From a virus (lineage: Duplodnaviria > Heunggongvirae > Uroviricota > Caudoviricetes), in IMG/VR virus record IMGVR_UViG_2529293240_000021, positions 1 through 13,448 of that record: 13,448 nt of DNA. The stretch is one strand, 5' to 3'. The stretch's first letter is position 1. The number at the start of each line of letters is the position of its first letter. Shown piece by piece: positions 1 to 13,448 of the stretch. Made by a program: the position numbers and the translations under genes. The notes beneath the pieces are model-generated. The model was not told where the DNA came from and searched no databases. It saw only the letters and a program-made list of their open reading frames with translations.

Positions 1-1545
1 TCATTGAGCTTCTCGATCACTTCGCGCAACCAGTCCTCCGGCTCCACTTCGTTCTGTTTGCAGGTGACCAGCAGACTGTAGATGATCGCCGCACTTTCTC
101 CTCCCTTGTCTGAGCCGAAAAAGAGATAAGTTTTTTCTTCCAACCGCCACCGATCGTAACGCGTTTTCACCGATGTTGTTGTCTATTTCCACCCAGCCGT
201 CACGACAGAACTCGTTCAGCGCATTCCAGTGATTCAGGATATAGTCGAACGCCTTCGCCATCTCCGCATGTTTCGACAGCGTTTTCCTCTGCAACTGTAT
301 CCAGTCGTACAACGACTGCATCAACTGGACGCTTCTGGCTTTTCTGACTGCAAGCCGTTCCTCTGCCGGACTGCCACGTATCTCCGCTTCTATGTCGTAT
401 AACTCTGCTATCCGTCTGAGCGCTTCCTGAGTCATTTCTGTCGGACGGCGCACATCCTCGTCATGGATTTTTCGGCGGGCGTGGGCCAGGCACCCGGCTT
501 CCTTCACCCGGCCCGTTTCGTACAGTACGTTATAACCTGCATAGGCATCAGCCTGCAGTACGCCCTGATACTTTGCCAGGTGGAGCTGCGGATGTTCTCC
601 TTTGCGATCTGCCGAATACGCGAACCAGACGGCTGCCGGCAGGGATGAACCCGCATTACGATCATCCCTGACGTATACCCACAGACGACCCGTTTTCGTC
701 TTTCCGTTCCCCGGGGCCAGTACTTTCACCGGAGTGTCATCTGCGTGCACCTTTCCTGCCTCCAGAACATAGTCATTCAGCGCTATATACAGAGGACGGA
801 GTTTGTCTGCCATTTCTGATACCCAGCGCACCATGGTATTACGGCTCAGCTCCACGCCCTGTCGCGCGTATATTTCTGACTGGCGATATAAAGGGATATG
901 TTCCATATATTTGCTGACCAGGATCCGTGCAAGTAACCCTGCACTGGCATAACCGCGTTCGATCGGTTTAGGAGGAAGTGGTGCCTGAACGATGACATCA
1001 CACCGGCTACAGGCCAGTTTGGGACGTATGGTTTCGATAACTTTAAAGGCGGTATTAATGATATCCAGTTGCTCTGAGATTGTTTCCCCCATTTCTTTCA
1101 GAACACCTCCACAGGCCGGGCAACTGGTTTCAGCAGGCAGAAGGCGATGTGTCTCCCGGGGAAGTTCTGCCGGCAGCGGTTTTCGTGAAGATTTTCGTCC
1201 CGGGAATTCAGGCTTACTGGCGATCGGGTTTTCTGACGGGGGACTGGTGTCAGGTGAATCTGTGACTGACGATGCATCTTCCAGAAGATTTCTGGCTGTG
1301 TTCAGCCGGTTTTCCAGTTCCGACAGTCGTTTTTCTGCCTGTCGGATCTGATTTTCAAGCTTATGACGCTTTTTCTCTGAACTCTGGCCGAACAACATAC
1401 GACGCAACCTGTCGAGTTGCGCTTTCAGCCGTTCAATTTCCTGCTCATAGCCCGCGACCTGACAGGCATACTGTCGAAGCCGACTCTGTTGCTTACGCAA
1501 CATGGCTTTAAGCAGCTCAATATCATCGGGGAGTTCATTGTTCAT
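1..1545 (-). CDS. tnpC: IS66-family transposase TnpC; 3' end appears frameshifted (possible pseudogene)
   Basis: 514-aa ORF with IS66 transposase motifs (CxxC zinc-finger-like region, ...[36 protein letters not shown]). After GRKN the annotated frame becomes Arg-rich low complexity, while another frame encodes a protein-like tail ([43 protein letters not shown]) that runs off the window edge. Confidence 0.8.
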
Positions 1546-1564
1546 TCCCTTGTTTTATCACGGG

Positions 1565-1912
1565 TTATATCCGGATGCCAGGCCGTTCTGTCCGTTTGGG
1601 ATGTTGCCACGCGATCCCCTCCAGTAGCATGGATAACTGAGCTGGCGTCAGGTGCACTTTCCCTTCCCGGGTCACCGGCCAGACGAAGCGGCCCCGTTCC
1701 AGGCGTTTGGCGAACAGGCATAACCCGTCACGATCGGCCCACAGTATTTTCACCATTTTGCCACTGCGGCCCCGGAAGACGAAGATATGCCCGGAGAACG
1801 GGTCATCTTTCAGCGTGTTCTGCACCTTCGAAGCCAGGCCATTGAAGCCACAACGCATATCTGTGATGCCAGCGATGATCCAGATTTTGGTACCGGTCGG
1901 CAGCGTTATCAT
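1565..1912 (-). CDS. tnpB: IS66-family accessory protein TnpB (Orf2)
   Basis: 115-aa ORF (MITLPTGTKIWIIAGITDMRCGFNGLA...) directly downstream of tnpA with a 4-nt ATGA overlap; size and position match IS66 Orf2. Confidence 0.85.
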   Translation of the reverse strand: MITLPTGTKIWIIAGITDMRCGFNGLASKVQNTLKDDPFSGHIFVFRGRSGKMVKILWADRDGLCLFAKRLERGRFVWPVTREGKVHLTPAQLSMLLEGIAWQHPKRTERPGIRI

Positions 1913-2583
1913 CGGATACCCCCTTTCATTTCGCGGATTAGCGCCCGTAACAGTTCCGGAGTGAGAGGGTCAAACAGTTTTACCACACCTGATTTAAGAT
2001 GCAGCTCGCACCGTGGGACGTTTCCGGGAGCCCCCTCAGGGCGCTCATCATGCTTGTTACGCCAGAAGGGATTTGTAACTGGTCTGGTCGGCTCCGGCGT
2101 ATCAGTCAGAGCCACCGGGACAGGCATGCATTCCTGTATGTCATCATCGCTCAGTAAGCCGTCCTCGTACTGGCTTTTCCATTTAAACAGCAGGTTATTA
2201 TTGATATCGTGTTCTCTGGCGATCCGGGCAACAACAGCCCCAGGCTGTAACGCCTGCTTAGCCAGACGGACCTTAAATTCACGGCTATAGCTGGTTCGCC
2301 GTTCTTTTCGCCATGAGCCTTCTCTGATTTGAGGCTCTGTTAATTCCTTCTTTCTGTTGGCATAAAGGATGGCGTCAAGTTGAGCGAATGAAACTGAATC
2401 GGGCAATGGCCATGCGATACCGGATGCAAGAAATCGCTGAAAAAGCGTATGTATTGTGGAATGACTGAGACCCAGACGCTGAGCGATGGCCCGGATGGTC
2501 AGTTTATCTTCAAATCTTAAACGCAGGGCATCAGGCAAATAAGAACGGAAGCAGGGAATATCTTTTGTTGTCTGGGAATTCAT
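1909..2583 (-). CDS. tnpA: IS66-family accessory protein TnpA (Orf1), long form with extra N-terminal HTH region
   Basis: 224-aa ORF, first gene inside the IS end. C-terminal half (REFKVRLAKQALQPGAVVARIAREHDINNNLLFKWK) resembles the IS66 Orf1 HTH region; N-terminal half has a second HTH-like segment (TIRAIAQRLGLSHSTIHTLFQRF). Confidence 0.8.
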   Translation of the reverse strand: MNSQTTKDIPCFRSYLPDALRLRFEDKLTIRAIAQRLGLSHSTIHTLFQRFLASGIAWPLPDSVSFAQLDAILYANRKKELTEPQIREGSWRKERRTSYSREFKVRLAKQALQPGAVVARIAREHDINNNLLFKWKSQYEDGLLSDDDIQECMPVPVALTDTPEPTRPVTNPFWRNKHDERPEGAPGNVPRCELHLKSGVVKLFDPLTPELLRALIREMKGGIR

Positions 2584-2640
2584 CGTTCGTGTCCATCAAT
2601 ATAGATGGGCGCGATTGTTGCCAGACAGGACAATTTTCAC

Positions 2641-2665
2641 AAGACGTCGCTGATGGGGCGCTTAC
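2641..2665 (-). repeat. terminal inverted repeat of the IS66-family element (approximate extent)
   Basis: Minus-strand sequence GTAAGCGCCCCATCAGCGACGTCTT ending at 2665, about 80 bp upstream of the tnpA start. Inner boundary of the repeat is not determined. Confidence 0.65.
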
Positions 2666-2726
2666 TGTTGTTCTGAGGTGAGCATATCACCTCTGTTCAG
2701 GTGGCCAAATTCAGTGTGCCACTTCA
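2666..2726 (+). mobile_element. 61-bp terminal fragment of an IS3-family element (IS911-like right end), truncated by the IS66-family insertion
   Basis: Plus strand 2691-2726 reads CTCTGTTCAGGTGGCCAAATTCAGTGTGCCACTTCA, whose complement starts TGAAGTGGCACACTGAATTTGGCCACC. This is a TGA...TCA-type IS3-family terminal repeat that I recall as the IS911 right end. It abuts the IS66 terminus at 2665/2666. Confidence 0.5.
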
Positions 2727-2972
2727 AAAGCTGAAAATGATGCTCTTCGGCGCAAGCTTGATAATGGTGGTCGGGTGCTCGTCAAAGGAAAATGCCCTGT
2801 GCCATCCTCAGCCGAAACCTCCAGCGCCTCCGGCATGGGCAATGATGCCACCGTCGAACTCTCTCCAGTTGCTGGACGAAACGTTCTCGGTATCCGGGAC
2901 GGAATCATCAGCGACCAGACAGCATTGAGAATGCTTCAGGAGTACATCAGGATCCAATGCCTTGGGGGGTAG
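2727..2972 (+). pseudogene. Rz: Rz-like i-spanin, 3' fragment only (5' part removed at the IS boundary)
   Basis: Frame open from the IS end: KAENDALRRKLDNGGRVLVKGKCPVPSSAETSSASGMGNDA...QCLGG*. The KAENDALR and S-A-E-T-S-S-A-S-G-x-x-N-D-A segments resemble the C-terminal half of lambda Rz (AKAENDALRDD...REATTASGVDNAA...). No start codon or N-terminal TM segment is present. Confidence 0.6.
2737..2928 (+). CDS. Rz1: Rz1-like o-spanin lipoprotein, embedded in the +1 frame of Rz
   Basis: 63-aa ORF MMLFGASLIMVVGCSSKENALCHPQPKPPAPPAWAMMPP...: signal peptide with lipobox (VVGC) followed by a proline-rich stretch, closely resembling lambda Rz1 (MLKLKMMLCVMMLPLVVVGCTSK...KPPPPPAWIMQPP). Entirely inside the Rz frame. 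Confidence 0.55.
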   Translation: MMLFGASLIMVVGCSSKENALCHPQPKPPAPPAWAMMPPSNSLQLLDETFSVSGTESSATRQH

Positions 2973-3060
2973 CGGTAATTTTACTCATTATCCTTCAAAT
3001 CAGATTCTGTTGTCAGAGGAATGGGGGAAGCTGGATTCGCAAGAGCTTTTTATGGGCAGT

Positions 3061-3570
3061 TTAGCTAAAAAAAGGCAACACGAAGCTAAAACTACCAACA
3101 TAAAGTGCTGACCAGCTAGCAGCTGAAATCAGACTCACTGTATACACTTTCACTGGATGAAGTTGCAACATTCCTGCCACCAAAGGAGCAATGTAACGCA
3201 GCACGGCGATAAAGCGCGAAGTGAAAAGTATTGACACAGAGTTATTTTGCAACTGAAGGCGAACCCGTTCTATTGTATTGGAACGGCTCGATATTATACA
3301 TGCAAGTTGAGGGATATGCCCAATTATTATACCAAGATGGTAATTAACGATAGTACCGCACCATGCGCCACTCATGACCGTGATTCCAGCTTCCCATGGT
3401 GAAAGAGTCGTCTTGCTGACTGTAATTACAGTGGCCATCATAATTGATGCTGGTGGCAATATCGCCGAAATGAGTAAAGTGGATTTTGTGAACGCTATTA
3501 TAAAAAGAAGCCCCCATAGGCGATATGGATGAAGTACAAAATAGTTCATCAAAGCATTTATCCACTCCAT
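3061..3570 (-). CDS. YqaA/DedA-family inner-membrane protein (probable prophage moron)
   Basis: 169-aa hydrophobic ORF. Segments align by eye to E. coli YqaA (FLSATLLPGNSEVVLVAML vs LLISAILPPASIMMATVIT; HPWVLVLTATMGNSLGGLTNVILG vs SPWEAGITVMSGAWCGTIVNYHLG; SWMPVVGDLLCLLAGWMRIS vs SRFIAVLRYIAPLVAGMLQLH). RBS AAGGAAA lies 7 nt upstream of the ATG at 3570. Oriented opposite to the flanking phage genes. Confidence 0.65.
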   Translation of the reverse strand: MEWINALMNYFVLHPYRLWGLLFIIAFTKSTLLISAILPPASIMMATVITVSKTTLSPWEAGITVMSGAWCGTIVNYHLGIIIGHIPQLACIISSRSNTIERVRLQLQNNSVSILFTSRFIAVLRYIAPLVAGMLQLHPVKVYTVSLISAASWSALYVGSFSFVLPFFS

Positions 3571-3767
3571 CAATGTCTTTCCTTCTGTGAATTTTTCTTT
3601 GCTATTTAACCGTGATACGACTTAATTTAGGCTTAAACACCTTACATTTACAAGGTACTCCTGTGGGGGGCCCTGCCACGGAGCGTCGCAGGAGTGAGTG
3701 ATGAGGAAGAATTAAAGCAACCTATTGTGACAGGCAGCGATAACAGTAAATCACAGGAAGCATAATC

Positions 3768-4532
3768 ATGGCAAAACCGGACTGGGAGGCCATCGAATCG
3801 GCATACCGGGCCGGAGTCCTTAGCCTCCGTGATATAGGCGAGAAATACGGCGTTACAGAAGGGGCTATCAGGAAGAGGGCCAAAAAGCTTGGTTGGGCAC
3901 GCAGTGGCGGTACGCAGGTTTGCAAAAATGGTACGCAAAAAAGGAAAGTGCGTACCAGCAGAAAGCCTGCCATTACTGGCCTTACACAAAAAAGTACGCA
4001 ACTAAAAACAGAATCTACACCGGATACGAAACCGATACGCGGAATGCGTACCGATCCCCCGACTAACCCATTCCAACCCGGTAACCAGCAGGCATTAAAA
4101 CACGGTGGTTATGCCCGTCGCCTTCTGCTCAAAGATGAGGTGATAGAGGACGCTAAAGCGTTGACGCTCGAGGACGAATTATTTCGCCTTCGTGCTAACA
4201 ACCTTGTCGCTGCAGAGAATATTGGTCGGTGGTTGGTGTCGCTGGAAGATGCTAATGGGGACCAGGAAAGGAAGATGCTGATTGAAAATATCAGCGCCGC
4301 CGAGAAAGCAATGATGCGCAATACAGTTCGTATTGAGTCCATCGTTGGCACGCTTGCGACGGTAGGAAAAATATTTGCTGATACAGCCTACCGCAAGGCC
4401 GCCACTGATAAGGTGTCTCTGGAGGCTGATCGTCTTCGCCGTGATGCAGGTATTGATGATGGCAATGGAGAGCGTGACCTCAATGACTTCTACTCTGACA
4501 TCCAAACCGACGCTGAATCCGGCTTTACGTAG
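3768..4532 (+). CDS. terS: phage terminase small subunit (N-terminal HTH DNA-binding domain)
   Basis: 254-aa ORF with AGGAAG RBS 6 nt upstream. N-terminus MAKPDWEAIESAYRAGVLSLRDIGEKYGVTEGAIRKRAKKLGW is a typical small-terminase HTH. It sits immediately upstream of, and overlaps, the large-terminase ORF. Confidence 0.7.
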   Translation: MAKPDWEAIESAYRAGVLSLRDIGEKYGVTEGAIRKRAKKLGWARSGGTQVCKNGTQKRKVRTSRKPAITGLTQKSTQLKTESTPDTKPIRGMRTDPPTNPFQPGNQQALKHGGYARRLLLKDEVIEDAKALTLEDELFRLRANNLVAAENIGRWLVSLEDANGDQERKMLIENISAAEKAMMRNTVRIESIVGTLATVGKIFADTAYRKAATDKVSLEADRLRRDAGIDDGNGERDLNDFYSDIQTDAESGFT

Positions 4533-5150: not shown

Positions 5151-5241
5151 TAGACTGGCCCCCTGAATCTCCAGACAACCAGTATCACTTATTTAAGTGA
5201 TAGTCTTAATACTAGTTTTTAGACTAGTCATTGGAGAACAG

Positions 5242-5607
5242 ATGATTGATGTCTTAGGGCCGGAGAAACGCAGACGGCGTACCACACAGGAAAAGATCGC
5301 AATTGTTCAGCAGAGCTTTGAACCGGGGATGACGGTCTCCCTCGTTGCCCGGCAACATGGTGTAGCAGCCAGCCAGTTATTTCTCTGGCGTAAGCAATAC
5401 CAGGAAGGAAGTCTTACTGCTGTGGCCGCCGGAGAACAGGTTGTTCCTGCCTCTGAACTTGCTGCCGCCATGAAGCAGATTAAAGAACTCCAGCGCCTGC
5501 TCGGCAAGAAAACGATGGAAAATGAACTCCTCAAAGAAGCCGTTGAATATGGACGGGCAAAAAAGTGGATAGCGCACGCGCCCTTATTGCCCGGGGATGG
5601 GGAGTAA
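5242..5607 (+). CDS. insC: IS2 OrfA (InsC), HTH protein
   Basis: 121-aa [59 protein letters not shown]..., matching IS2 InsC; GGAG RBS upstream. Confidence 0.9.
5559..5565 (+). promoter_or_regulatory. -1 programmed ribosomal frameshift slippery heptamer (A AAA AAG) of IS2
   Basis: AAAAAAG lies in X XXY YYZ register with the insC frame, and insD is open in the -1 frame from this point (frame arithmetic: insC at position mod 3 = 1, insD at mod 3 = 0). Confidence 0.8.
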
Positions 5608-6470
5608 GCTTAGTCAGCCGTTGTCTCCGGGTGTCGCGTGCGCAGTTGCACGTCATTCTCAGACGAACCGATGACTGGATGGATGGCCGCCGCAGTCGTC
5701 ACACTGATGATACGGATGTGCTTCTCCGTATACACCATGTTATCGGAGAGCTGCCCACGTATGGTTATCGTCGGGTATGGGCGCTGCTTCGCAGACAGGC
5801 AGAACTTGATGGTATGCCTGCGATCAATGCCAAACGTGTTTACCGGATCATGCGCCAGAATGCGCTGTTGCTTGAGCGAAAACCTGCTGTACCGCCATCG
5901 AAACGGGCACATACAGGCAGAGTAGCCGTGAAAGAAAGCAATCAGCGATGGTGCTCTGACGGGTTCGAGTTCTGCTGTGATAACGGAGAGAGACTGCGTG
6001 TCACGTTCGCGCTGGACTGCTGTGATCGTGAGGCACTGCACTGGGCGGTGACTACCGGCGGCTTCAACAGTGAAACAGTACAGGACGTCATGCTGGGAGC
6101 GGTGGAACGCCGCTTCGGCAACGATCTTCCGTCGTCTCCAGTGGAGTGGCTGACGGATAATGGTTCATGCTACCGGGCTAATGAAACACGCCAGTTCGCC
6201 CGGATGTTGGGACTTGAACCGAAGAACACGGCGGTGCGGAGTCCGGAGAGTAACGGAATAGCAGAGAGCTTCGTGAAAACGATAAAGCGTGACTACATCA
6301 GTATCATGCCCAAACCAGACGGGTTAACGGCAGCAAAGAACCTTGCAGAGGCGTTCGAGCATTATAACGAATGGCATCCGCATAGTGCGCTGGGTTATCG
6401 CTCGCCACGGGAATATCTGCGGCAGCGGGCTTGTAATGGGTTAAGTGATAACAGATGTCTGGAAATATAG
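5565..6470 (+). CDS. insD: IS2 OrfB (InsD), DDE transposase catalytic domain; expressed as InsCD fusion by -1 frameshifting
   Basis: 301-aa [41 protein letters not shown]... matching IS2 InsD; begins at the slip site in the -1 frame relative to insC. Confidence 0.9.
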
Positions 6471-6481
6471 GGGCAAATCCA

Positions 6482-12249: not shown

Positions 12250-12292
12250 TGAGGTGTACTGGCAATAGCGGACACTACCATTTGTTCTTTTT

Positions 12293-13111
12293 TTAAGCAG
12301 CCATCTGATGATATTTTTCCCTGAAGGCTGCCGGGGAGATATTCCCCAGACGAGAGTGACGACGCTGACGATTGTAGAAAATCTCAATGTATTCCCGTAT
12401 TACTGAGATGGCTTCATCCCGGTTATTAAAACGATAGTGGCTCAGGCTCTCATTTTTCAGAGTTCCCCAGAAGCTTTCCATCGGAGCGTTGTCGTAACAG
12501 TTACCTTTACGCGACATTGATGTTTTCAGACCAAACTGCTCCTGTATGACCCGGTAATCGTATGCGCAGTACTGTGAACCTCGATCAGAGTGGTGGATTA
12601 GCCCGGCAGGTGGGCGCTGGCTCCTGAGCGCCATAAACAGGGCTTTACCTGTCAGCTCTTTTGTCACGCGCTCTCCCATGGCGTAGCCGACAATTTCGCA
12701 CGTATAAACATCTTTGATGCCAGCGAGGTACAACCATCCCTCCTGTGTGGCAACATACGTCAGGTCCGCCACCCAGACCTGATTTGGTGCTGTAGGAGCG
12801 AACGTCTGGTTCAGCAGATTTGGCGCAACTGGCAGATTGTGGTTCGGGTTCGTAGTCGCTCTGAACTTGCGTTTCTGCTTACAGCGTAGCCTTAGCTCCT
12901 TACGAAGACGTGCCAGTCGGTCACGACCAACGATGATGCCATTCTCTGCCAGCTCCGTCTGGAGCCGCCGGGTTCCATATGTTTCGCGAGTGCGGATATG
13001 TGCCACCTTAATCTCCAGTTTTAGCCGCTCATCACTTTGTTTTCTGTCTGAGGGTTCATGCTGTACCCAGTTGTAATAACCGCTCCTGGATACACCAAAT
13101 ACCTGACACAT
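12293..13111 (-). CDS. IS3-family transposase OrfB (DDE catalytic domain)
   Basis: 272-aa ORF with integrase-core motifs (VWVADLTY, HHSDRGSQY, CYDNAPMESF). Its frame stays open upstream to the A-run at 13191-13197. Confidence 0.85.
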   Translation of the reverse strand: MCQVFGVSRSGYYNWVQHEPSDRKQSDERLKLEIKVAHIRTRETYGTRRLQTELAENGIIVGRDRLARLRKELRLRCKQKRKFRATTNPNHNLPVAPNLLNQTFAPTAPNQVWVADLTYVATQEGWLYLAGIKDVYTCEIVGYAMGERVTKELTGKALFMALRSQRPPAGLIHHSDRGSQYCAYDYRVIQEQFGLKTSMSRKGNCYDNAPMESFWGTLKNESLSHYRFNNRDEAISVIREYIEIFYNRQRRHSRLGNISPAAFREKYHQMAA

Positions 13112-13160
13112 CGCTTCAATGGGAAATTGTTGTCGCCATTGTTCGATTAACGCGTATTTT

Positions 13161-13448
13161 TCAGCGACTCCTGTGCAAAATACGCTGTTGCTTTTTTAAT
13201 ATATCTCGCTCAAGGCGAGCTTCATTTAACGCCTTACGCAGTTGCAGAATTTCAGATTCCAGTTCAGCCACCGTGCGGGAACCAGGAGTACCGAGCCCTT
13301 TTCTGGCGGCGGTAACCCATTGTCCTAAAGTGCCTTCAGGAAGGGATAATCGGGAAGCGCCTTCACTGATCGAAGGTTGATTTTCAAGAACCGTTCTGAC
13401 AGCTTCGGCTTTGAACTCTTTAGAGTAACGTTGGGTTTTTCTGCTCAT
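13161..13448 (-). CDS. IS3-family OrfA (HTH / leucine-zipper protein)
   Basis: 95-aa ORF starting at the last base of the window (ATG at 13446-13448, minus strand): MSRKTQRYSKEFKAEAVRTVLENQ...; C-terminal tail may be altered (see findings). Confidence 0.85.
   Translation of the reverse strand: MSRKTQRYSKEFKAEAVRTVLENQPSISEGASRLSLPEGTLGQWVTAARKGLGTPGSRTVAELESEILQLRKALNEARLERDILKKQQRILHRSR
13191..13197 (-). promoter_or_regulatory. A6G slippery run at the orfA/orfB junction of the IS600-like element (frame relation atypical)
   Basis: Minus strand reads TTA AAA AAG in the orfA frame, but orfB lies in the +1 frame, not the -1 frame, relative to orfA by coordinate arithmetic. Confidence 0.55.

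Follow-up and report, generated by a model that had tools for sequence, protein, structure and literature searches.

In phage lambda, the Rz1 gene lies in the +1 frame of the Rz gene. [quoted passage not shown] In a saturating screen of the lambda genes, the substitution of Met1 by Lys was lysis-defective both in Rz and in Rz1, and the Rz1 mutant showed this defect even though Met6 and Met7 were still present (PMC5295617). We analyzed a stretch of 13,448 nucleotides of viral DNA, hereafter the window, whose spanin region resembles that of lambda in several respects. Rz1 is again read in the +1 frame relative to Rz, the KAENDALR motif occupies the corresponding site, the Rz fragment has the C-terminal Cys, and the VVGC and KPPPPPAW motifs of lambda Rz1 align with VVGC and PQPKPPAPPAW in the window, the proline-rich region having the form PPxPPAW. 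Compared with lambda, the window retains only codons 76-156 of Rz and codons 3-68 of Rz1, and it lacks the TMD, the start codons of both genes, the ribosome-binding site and the late promoter. We are highly confident that the locus is the defunct residue of a lambdoid lysis cassette, located in a prophage on a Shigella-type chromosome (Shigella or enteroinvasive E. coli) and broken by insertion sequences as a first, sequence-only reading of this DNA had proposed, with a spanin that would be inert.

Intact versions of the cassette were found in two prophages, FDAARGOS_943 (L002) and FDAARGOS_944 (L001/L005), which are collinear with the window at more than 99.5% DNA identity from Rz codon 76 through the genes for DedA, the small and large terminase subunits (TerS and TerL), the portal and the head proteins. 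In both, the genes follow the order class II holin, lysozyme RrrD, a 156-aa 'lysis protein' corresponding to Rz, DedA-family protein, small terminase, PBSX-type large terminase and DUF1073 portal protein. The Rz protein of the intact relative showed 66% identity to lambda Rz at the protein level, and its gene 95.9% DNA identity to the Rz gene of HK620, the nearest phage copy. The lysis genes are of the HK620/lambda type, and the head genes are of the PBSX-type large terminase and DUF1073-portal kind. L002 and L001/L005 keep the holin, the RrrD endolysin and the full Rz/Rz1 pair, whereas the window has insertion sequence DNA in their place and, in addition, copies of IS2 and IS600.

The Rz frame of the window (2727-2972, plus strand) comprises codons 76-156 and the stop codon, i.e., the C-terminal periplasmic half of the i-spanin, and encodes 81 residues (KAENDALRRKLDNGG...IQCLGG; in the longer reading KAENDALRRKLDNGGRVLVKGKCPVP...LQEYIRIQCLGG followed by the stop). 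The fragment matched PF03245 (Bacteriophage Rz lysis protein) with 44.1 bits against a cut-off of 25.4 bits (E = 3e-11, profile positions 48-125 of 126) and phrog_13 (Rz-like spanin) with E = 3.6e-28 (positions 76-153 of 154), both profiles being covered over their C-terminal half only. It aligns with lambda and HK620 Rz and is 100% identical to residues 76-156 of the intact 156-aa Rz of the E. coli prophage L002. At the DNA level, positions 2727-3767 showed a single mismatch in 1041 nt with L002, the identity beginning exactly at 2727, and the comparison with the intact relatives proposed for locating the insertion point thus placed the junction 2726|2727 exactly between Rz codons 75 and 76. 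A megablast search of 2560-3100 against 5,426 complete E. coli genomes returned thousands of matches starting at 2727. Some matches (H1-H3) that reached 2718 were considered as a possible different junction and rejected; the IS911 bases match L001 at 5 of 9 positions by chance.

The Rz fragment has neither a start codon nor a TMD and lacks most of the first coiled-coil region. No hydrophobic segment was detected in it by Kyte-Doolittle analysis, the highest 19-residue mean being 0.65 as compared with 2.63 (from residue 5) in the intact Rz. In-frame starts are present at GTG 2775, GTG 2799, ATG 2835, TTG 2925 and ATG 2931, and they would give soluble pieces of at most 65 aa; a shorter functional Rz initiated downstream of 2727 was rejected, as none of these products has a TMD. 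These results agree with the sequence-only reading, which had described an Rz-like gene cut off at an IS911-like end, with its first half, start and transmembrane segment missing: the first 75 codons are indeed absent, both frames matched spanin profiles as anticipated, and the negative search for an in-frame start with a TMD downstream of 2727, the observation that would have spoken against that reading, supports it. Production of an i-spanin from this locus appears to be impossible, because both the start and the transmembrane domain are absent.

Embedded in the +1 frame of the Rz fragment is a remnant of the Rz1 o-spanin gene (2728-2928, plus strand), which consists of native codons 3-68 and the stop codon and matched both PF06085 and phrog_3198. 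Within it, a 63-aa open reading frame (ORF; 2737-2928, plus strand) starts at an internal ATG corresponding to native Met6; this ORF matched PF06085 (Lipoprotein Rz1 precursor) with 75.3 bits against a cut-off of 27.9 bits (E = 3.1e-21) and phrog_3198 with E = 1.6e-23, aligning to profile positions 6-67 of 68. The frame has kept the lipobox VVGC, whose Cys is native residue 19, the Pro-rich stretch PQPKPPAPPAW and the hydrophobic core of the signal peptide, the lipoprotein-signal assignment being based on motif and charge count only. The +1 frame is the true Rz1 o-spanin reading frame.

The sequence-only reading had regarded the 63-aa ORF as complete and concluded that the o-spanin coding sequence survives. 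The ORF does exist, with its VVGC lipobox and Pro-rich region, but it is not complete, as the native protein starts upstream of the junction, and the claim of survival did not withstand the comparison with the intact relatives. In these, the sequence reads ...ACGAAGGAGTTAGCTG ATG CGA AAG CTG AAA ATG ATG CTC..., with the Rz1 start context AAGGAGttagctgATGCGAAAGCTGAAAATGATG. Native Rz1 is a 68-aa protein (MRKLKMMLFGASLIMVVGC...) that begins with MRKLK-MML..., five codons upstream of the 2737 ATG, and its initiation codon is preceded at a distance of 7 nt by an AAGGAG Shine-Dalgarno sequence (AAGGAG-N7-ATG CGA). In an alignment with lambda, the native ATG coincides with the start annotated for Rz1 (NC_001416 46186), and both this codon and the AAGGAG sequence are conserved in lambda, HK620, L001 and L002 and absent from the window. 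The insertion sequence junction falls inside Rz1 codon 2, so that the window keeps the gene from the third base of that codon onward (A AAG CTG AAA ATG ATG...), the ATGCG of Rz1 having been lost with the upstream DNA together with the ribosome-binding site. Judged against the relatives, Rz1 is incomplete, with its native start, most of codon 2 (the Arg2 codon) and the Shine-Dalgarno sequence deleted.

The ORF starting at 2737 has no Lys/Arg n-region, and no Shine-Dalgarno-like motif was found upstream of 2737 (cacttcaaaagctgaaaATG; cacttcaaaagctgaaa). The longest ORF of the Rz1 frame (2701-2928, plus strand, 75 aa) starts from a GTG within the IS911 stub, reads MAKFSVPLQ-KLKMML... and likewise shows no Shine-Dalgarno-like motif upstream of the 2701 GTG. 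It was recognized by phrog_3198 only over residues 9-73, corresponding to profile positions 2-67, and it is an accidental IS911-Rz1 fusion. Three N-terminal variants of Rz1 can be distinguished, namely the native MRKLK..., MML... and MAKFSVPLQKLK... An embedded ORF that seems complete from an internal ATG may lack its true start, a loss that intact relatives reveal. The appropriate annotation of the locus is an Rz pseudogene fragment with a 5'-truncated Rz1, rather than an intact o-spanin gene.

The left part of the window (1-2665, minus strand) is occupied by ISSfl3, an element of the IS66 family that runs off the left edge and was identified by Pfam matches and identity to annotated copies. 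Its genes are tnpC (1-1545), tnpB (1565-1912) and tnpA (1909-2583), which matched DDE_Tnp_IS66 (4e-97), TnpB_IS66 (5e-39) and HTH_Tnp_1 (2e-23), respectively. Positions 1-2665 are 99.5-99.8% identical to copies annotated in E. coli records as 'IS66-like element ISSfl3 family transposase', and all matches end at 2665. The terminus at this position (...GGGGCGCTTAC) ends with ...CGCTTAC, the reverse complement of which is GTAAGCG, which we take to be the usual terminus of the IS66 family.

Between ISSfl3 and the Rz fragment lie 61 bp (2666-2726, minus strand; reverse complement TGAAGTGGCACACTGAATTTGG..., in full TGAAGTGGCACACTGAATTTGGCCACCTGAACAGAGGTGATATGCTCACCTCAGAACAACA) that represent the left inverted-repeat end of IS911. 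The stub contains the IS911 terminal inverted repeat TGAAGTGG... in identical form and agrees at 61/61 positions with the left end of a complete IS911 copy (about 1,250 bp) in S. flexneri SFBU1023 (L003), a copy that is in turn 99% identical to copies annotated as 'IS3-like element IS911'. The window has kept only these last 61 bp of the element, in contrast to the complete IS911 of the sister genomes, and orfA/orfAB and the other end are absent, ISSfl3 abutting at 2665|2666. The IS3-family terminus that the sequence-only reading had placed at 2726 is thus an exact IS911 left end, but it belongs to a 61-bp stub cut by ISSfl3.

The ISSfl3 end joined to the 61-bp IS911 stub was also found in two IMG/VR contigs, L006 (3239-3766) and L007, so that the ISSfl3|IS911-stub junction recurs as a module. 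In L006 and L007, the IS911 end meets an unrelated flank (aattaagcattgcc...) beside a gene encoding a 571-aa IpaH-like leucine-rich-repeat protein, and ISSfl3 itself breaks off at the site equivalent to window position 2202. The two contigs were considered as further copies of the locus of the window and rejected, as they represent a distinct, ipaH-linked locus. The complete ISSfl3|IS911|Rz arrangement was absent from the complete E. coli genomes (n = 5,426), and a metagenome scan was also negative. The module may have arisen by independent insertion or by gene conversion or recombination between IS911 copies; conceivably, it could reflect an assembly join across the 61-bp repeat. The reading of Rz and Rz1 is independent of how the ISSfl3|IS911 junction arose.

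The exact IS911|Rz junction was then searched in one genome per GTDB species and in IMG/VR. The same junction occurs in S. flexneri SFBU1023 (L003), in 'E. coli' ECMA0423 (L004, a 4.44-Mb chromosome) and in the IMG/VR contigs L008 and L009, all four of which carry a complete IS911 at the junction and no ISSfl3; among the complete E. coli genomes, none showed IS911 joined to Rz codon 76. The likeness of L003 to the window extends to the downstream genes and a neighbouring IS600, and L004 shares the IS2 in TerL. Beyond IS911, L003 (3385-5100), L004 and L008 contain, in inverted orientation, the segment corresponding to L005 4422-6133, which ends at an IS600. This inverted segment comprises the DUF1133 gene from nt 113 (the first 112 nt are missing), four tRNA genes identified by ARAGORN as CAT, Arg-TCT, Thr-TGT and Gly-TCC, and the first 90 nt of the holin gene. 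These loci lack the remaining holin sequence, the endolysin and Rz codons 1-75.

No holin or endolysin gene is present upstream of the remnant in the window, where 1-2665 is ISSfl3, and on this point the sequence-only reading was right. Its suggestion that these genes were either replaced by insertion sequence DNA or lie beyond it can be kept only in part: in the sister genomes they are not simply beyond the element, IS911 and IS600 having inverted and truncated the region. As the window begins inside ISSfl3, the upstream loss refers to this position, and the rearranged DNA was read in the sister genomes. The 3 bp flanking the complete IS911 are cac on one side and aaa on the other and form no direct repeat, which fits recombination between copies of the element. 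The reciprocal junction (Rz 5' half, AAA and the IS911 end) was found neither in IMG/VR nor in the 5,426 E. coli genomes, and because of this the inversion that we infer is half documented.

A second IS911 in L008 was considered as a candidate for the reciprocal junction and rejected. L008 (reverse complement, 369-2915) carries a second lambdoid lysis region in inverted orientation, about 11 kb upstream in the contig, which includes Rz from its start to nt 401, where it is cut by IS600, a 1.2-kb block in the expected place of the endolysin, a piece of the holin gene and a tRNA region. This second region is a separate prophage remnant and not the missing half of the present one, because it overlaps window positions 2727-2902.

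E. coli O121 201805972 (L013, hit H94) was examined as a carrier of the same junction and rejected, since its IS911 lies 147 nt further upstream in Rz. In this genome (2601-4516), IS911 is located between the holin gene and a 5'-truncated Rz annotated as a 135-aa 'lysis protein'. L013 resembles the window in having IS911 in the same orientation beside a truncated Rz, with the endolysin missing, and differs from it in the position of the junction and in the prophage backbone. The IS911-Rz truncation of L013 is an independent event.

Two alternative readings concern the left side of the break. According to one, the join between ISSfl3 and the 61-bp stub was created during assembly across a repeat, and the real locus carries a complete IS911 as in the sister genomes. 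The stub is the sole sequence linking ISSfl3 to Rz here, the identical module occurs with another flank at the ipaH-linked locus of L006 and L007, and ISSfl3 was seen at this prophage in no other sequence of the collections searched, all of which would suit such a join; the same pattern could nevertheless be produced by gene conversion, by recombination between IS911 copies or by a second insertion, and the window itself shows no sign of misassembly. We regard an assembly join as unlikely, and the conclusion on Rz and Rz1 would be unaffected by it. The other reading assumes a simple split by nested insertions, with the rest of IS911, Rz codons 1-75, the endolysin and the holin intact just past ISSfl3. 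The window does end inside ISSfl3, and insertion of ISSfl3 into IS911 would be a simple nested event, which may predict an 8-bp duplication, with TGTTGTTC at the far end of ISSfl3 followed by the remainder of IS911. Against this, 4/4 sequences sharing the junction show past IS911 either the inverted DUF1133-tRNA-holin stub or the end of the contig, the IS911 flanks of the sister genomes form no target duplication, and the search for the junction between the Rz 5' half and IS911 was negative in the same 5,426 E. coli genomes and IMG/VR; a simple split is thus quite improbable.

We consider instead that the region was rearranged after the original insertion, with the following course of events. 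As is visible at 2726|2727, an IS911 end meets the spanin gene pair exactly between Rz codons 75 and 76 and within Rz1 codon 2, and all promoter-proximal DNA is gone from this position, including Rz codons 1-75 with the membrane anchor, the start and ribosome-binding site of Rz1, the genes for endolysin and holin, and the late promoter region. Recombination between copies of the element probably rearranged the region after that insertion: an IS911 copy in Rz may have recombined with a second copy of opposite orientation in the DUF1133 gene, with a later IS600-associated loss. In the lineage of the window, IS911 is reduced to the 61-bp stub now seen against the ISSfl3 end, probably either through insertion of ISSfl3 into IS911 or through exchange with another ISSfl3::IS911 copy.

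The possible expression of the remnant was evaluated from its sequence context. In the intact relatives, the lysis cassette is located downstream of the DUF1133 gene and the four-tRNA cluster, presumably the position at which late transcription starts, given the general organization of lambdoid phages. No sigma-70-like promoter on the plus strand was predicted over 2400-2972 by a crude consensus search that covered 2400-3800 and yielded no more sites in total than expected from shuffled sequence. The genes on the left side of the remnant are all insertion sequence genes on the opposite strand. The o-spanin frame keeps its lipobox and mature part while having no initiation codon, Shine-Dalgarno sequence or identifiable promoter. 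The spanin would be inert and the prophage unable to lyse the cell, because there is no start or TMD for the i-spanin and no initiation codon, Shine-Dalgarno sequence or promoter for the o-spanin; the sequence-only reading had also taken the pair to be non-functional, in line with the loss of lysis on removal of Met1 in lambda (PMC5295617).

A residual product must nonetheless be weighed, namely an outer-membrane lipoprotein still synthesized from the Rz1 remnant, with the 2737 ATG or the 2701 GTG as its start, by read-through transcription and perhaps in a residual or new role. The frame is open and intact, its hydrophobic core, lipobox and mature part show no difference from those of functional relatives, and initiation at 2701 would provide a hybrid, positively charged signal peptide (MAKFSVPLQKLKMMLFGASLIMVVG|C), the GTG-initiated ORF having three Lys ahead of the hydrophobic core. 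Neither start, however, is accompanied by a Shine-Dalgarno-like sequence, the plus strand has no predicted promoter, and the neighbouring insertion sequence genes all point the other way. The lambda Rz1 M1K mutant was lysis-defective with Met6 and Met7 in place, and an o-spanin without Rz has no known activity (PMC5295617). Conservation of the frame is explained by recency and not by selection, since the single mismatch in 1041 nt extends over coding and non-coding DNA alike. Synthesis of such a lipoprotein is very unlikely, and the more specific proposal that the 75-aa ORF (2701-2928) is translated from read-through transcripts into an orphan lipoprotein of the outer membrane, which the host retains for a non-lysis function, is extremely improbable.

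Downstream of the inert spanin remnant, the prophage continues. The lysis and packaging modules are separated by an intact DedA-family (VTT domain) membrane-protein gene on the opposite strand (3061-3573, minus strand; PF09335, 9e-14), whose product is identical over 170/170 aa to the annotated DedA family protein of L005 and likewise identical to WP_011069285.1 in the intact relatives. This gene is probably a moron, i.e., an accessory gene carried in the prophage. Promoter-like sites were noted close to the DedA gene, on the minus strand at 3322-3293. The small terminase gene (3768-4532, plus strand; phrog_370, 7.5e-95) is intact, its product being the same as the L005 homologue over 254/254 aa, and it demonstrates that the prophage goes on beyond the spanin remnant.

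The IS911, ISSfl3, IS2 and IS600 sequences all lie within one 13-kb stretch. The PBSX-type large terminase gene, which begins at 4483, is interrupted after nt 668 by a complete IS2 of 1,331 bp (5151-6481) flanked by the 5-bp direct repeat GCAAT; L004 and L009 carry this insertion as well. The portal, head-morphogenesis, DUF2213, Gp24 and DUF2184 genes have remained intact, at 99.7-100% protein identity. From 12250, an IS600 that is 99% identical to annotated IS600 cuts a STY1053-family gene and runs off the right end of the window (12250-13448), so that the intact prophage is followed collinearly only up to L005 15164. The IS2 in the large terminase gene and the IS600 in the structural module add to the damage of the prophage. 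An Rz/Rz1 remnant truncated by an insertion sequence in a cryptic prophage decayed by such elements is of a kind already known, routine and unsurprising to specialists; it adds one further example of insertion sequence-driven prophage immobilisation in Shigella-type genomes and has little import beyond annotation. The large terminase gene of E. coli FDAARGOS_943 (L002) also carries an IS2, and its annotated N-terminal fragment stops earlier, at nt 453; this may be an independent event.
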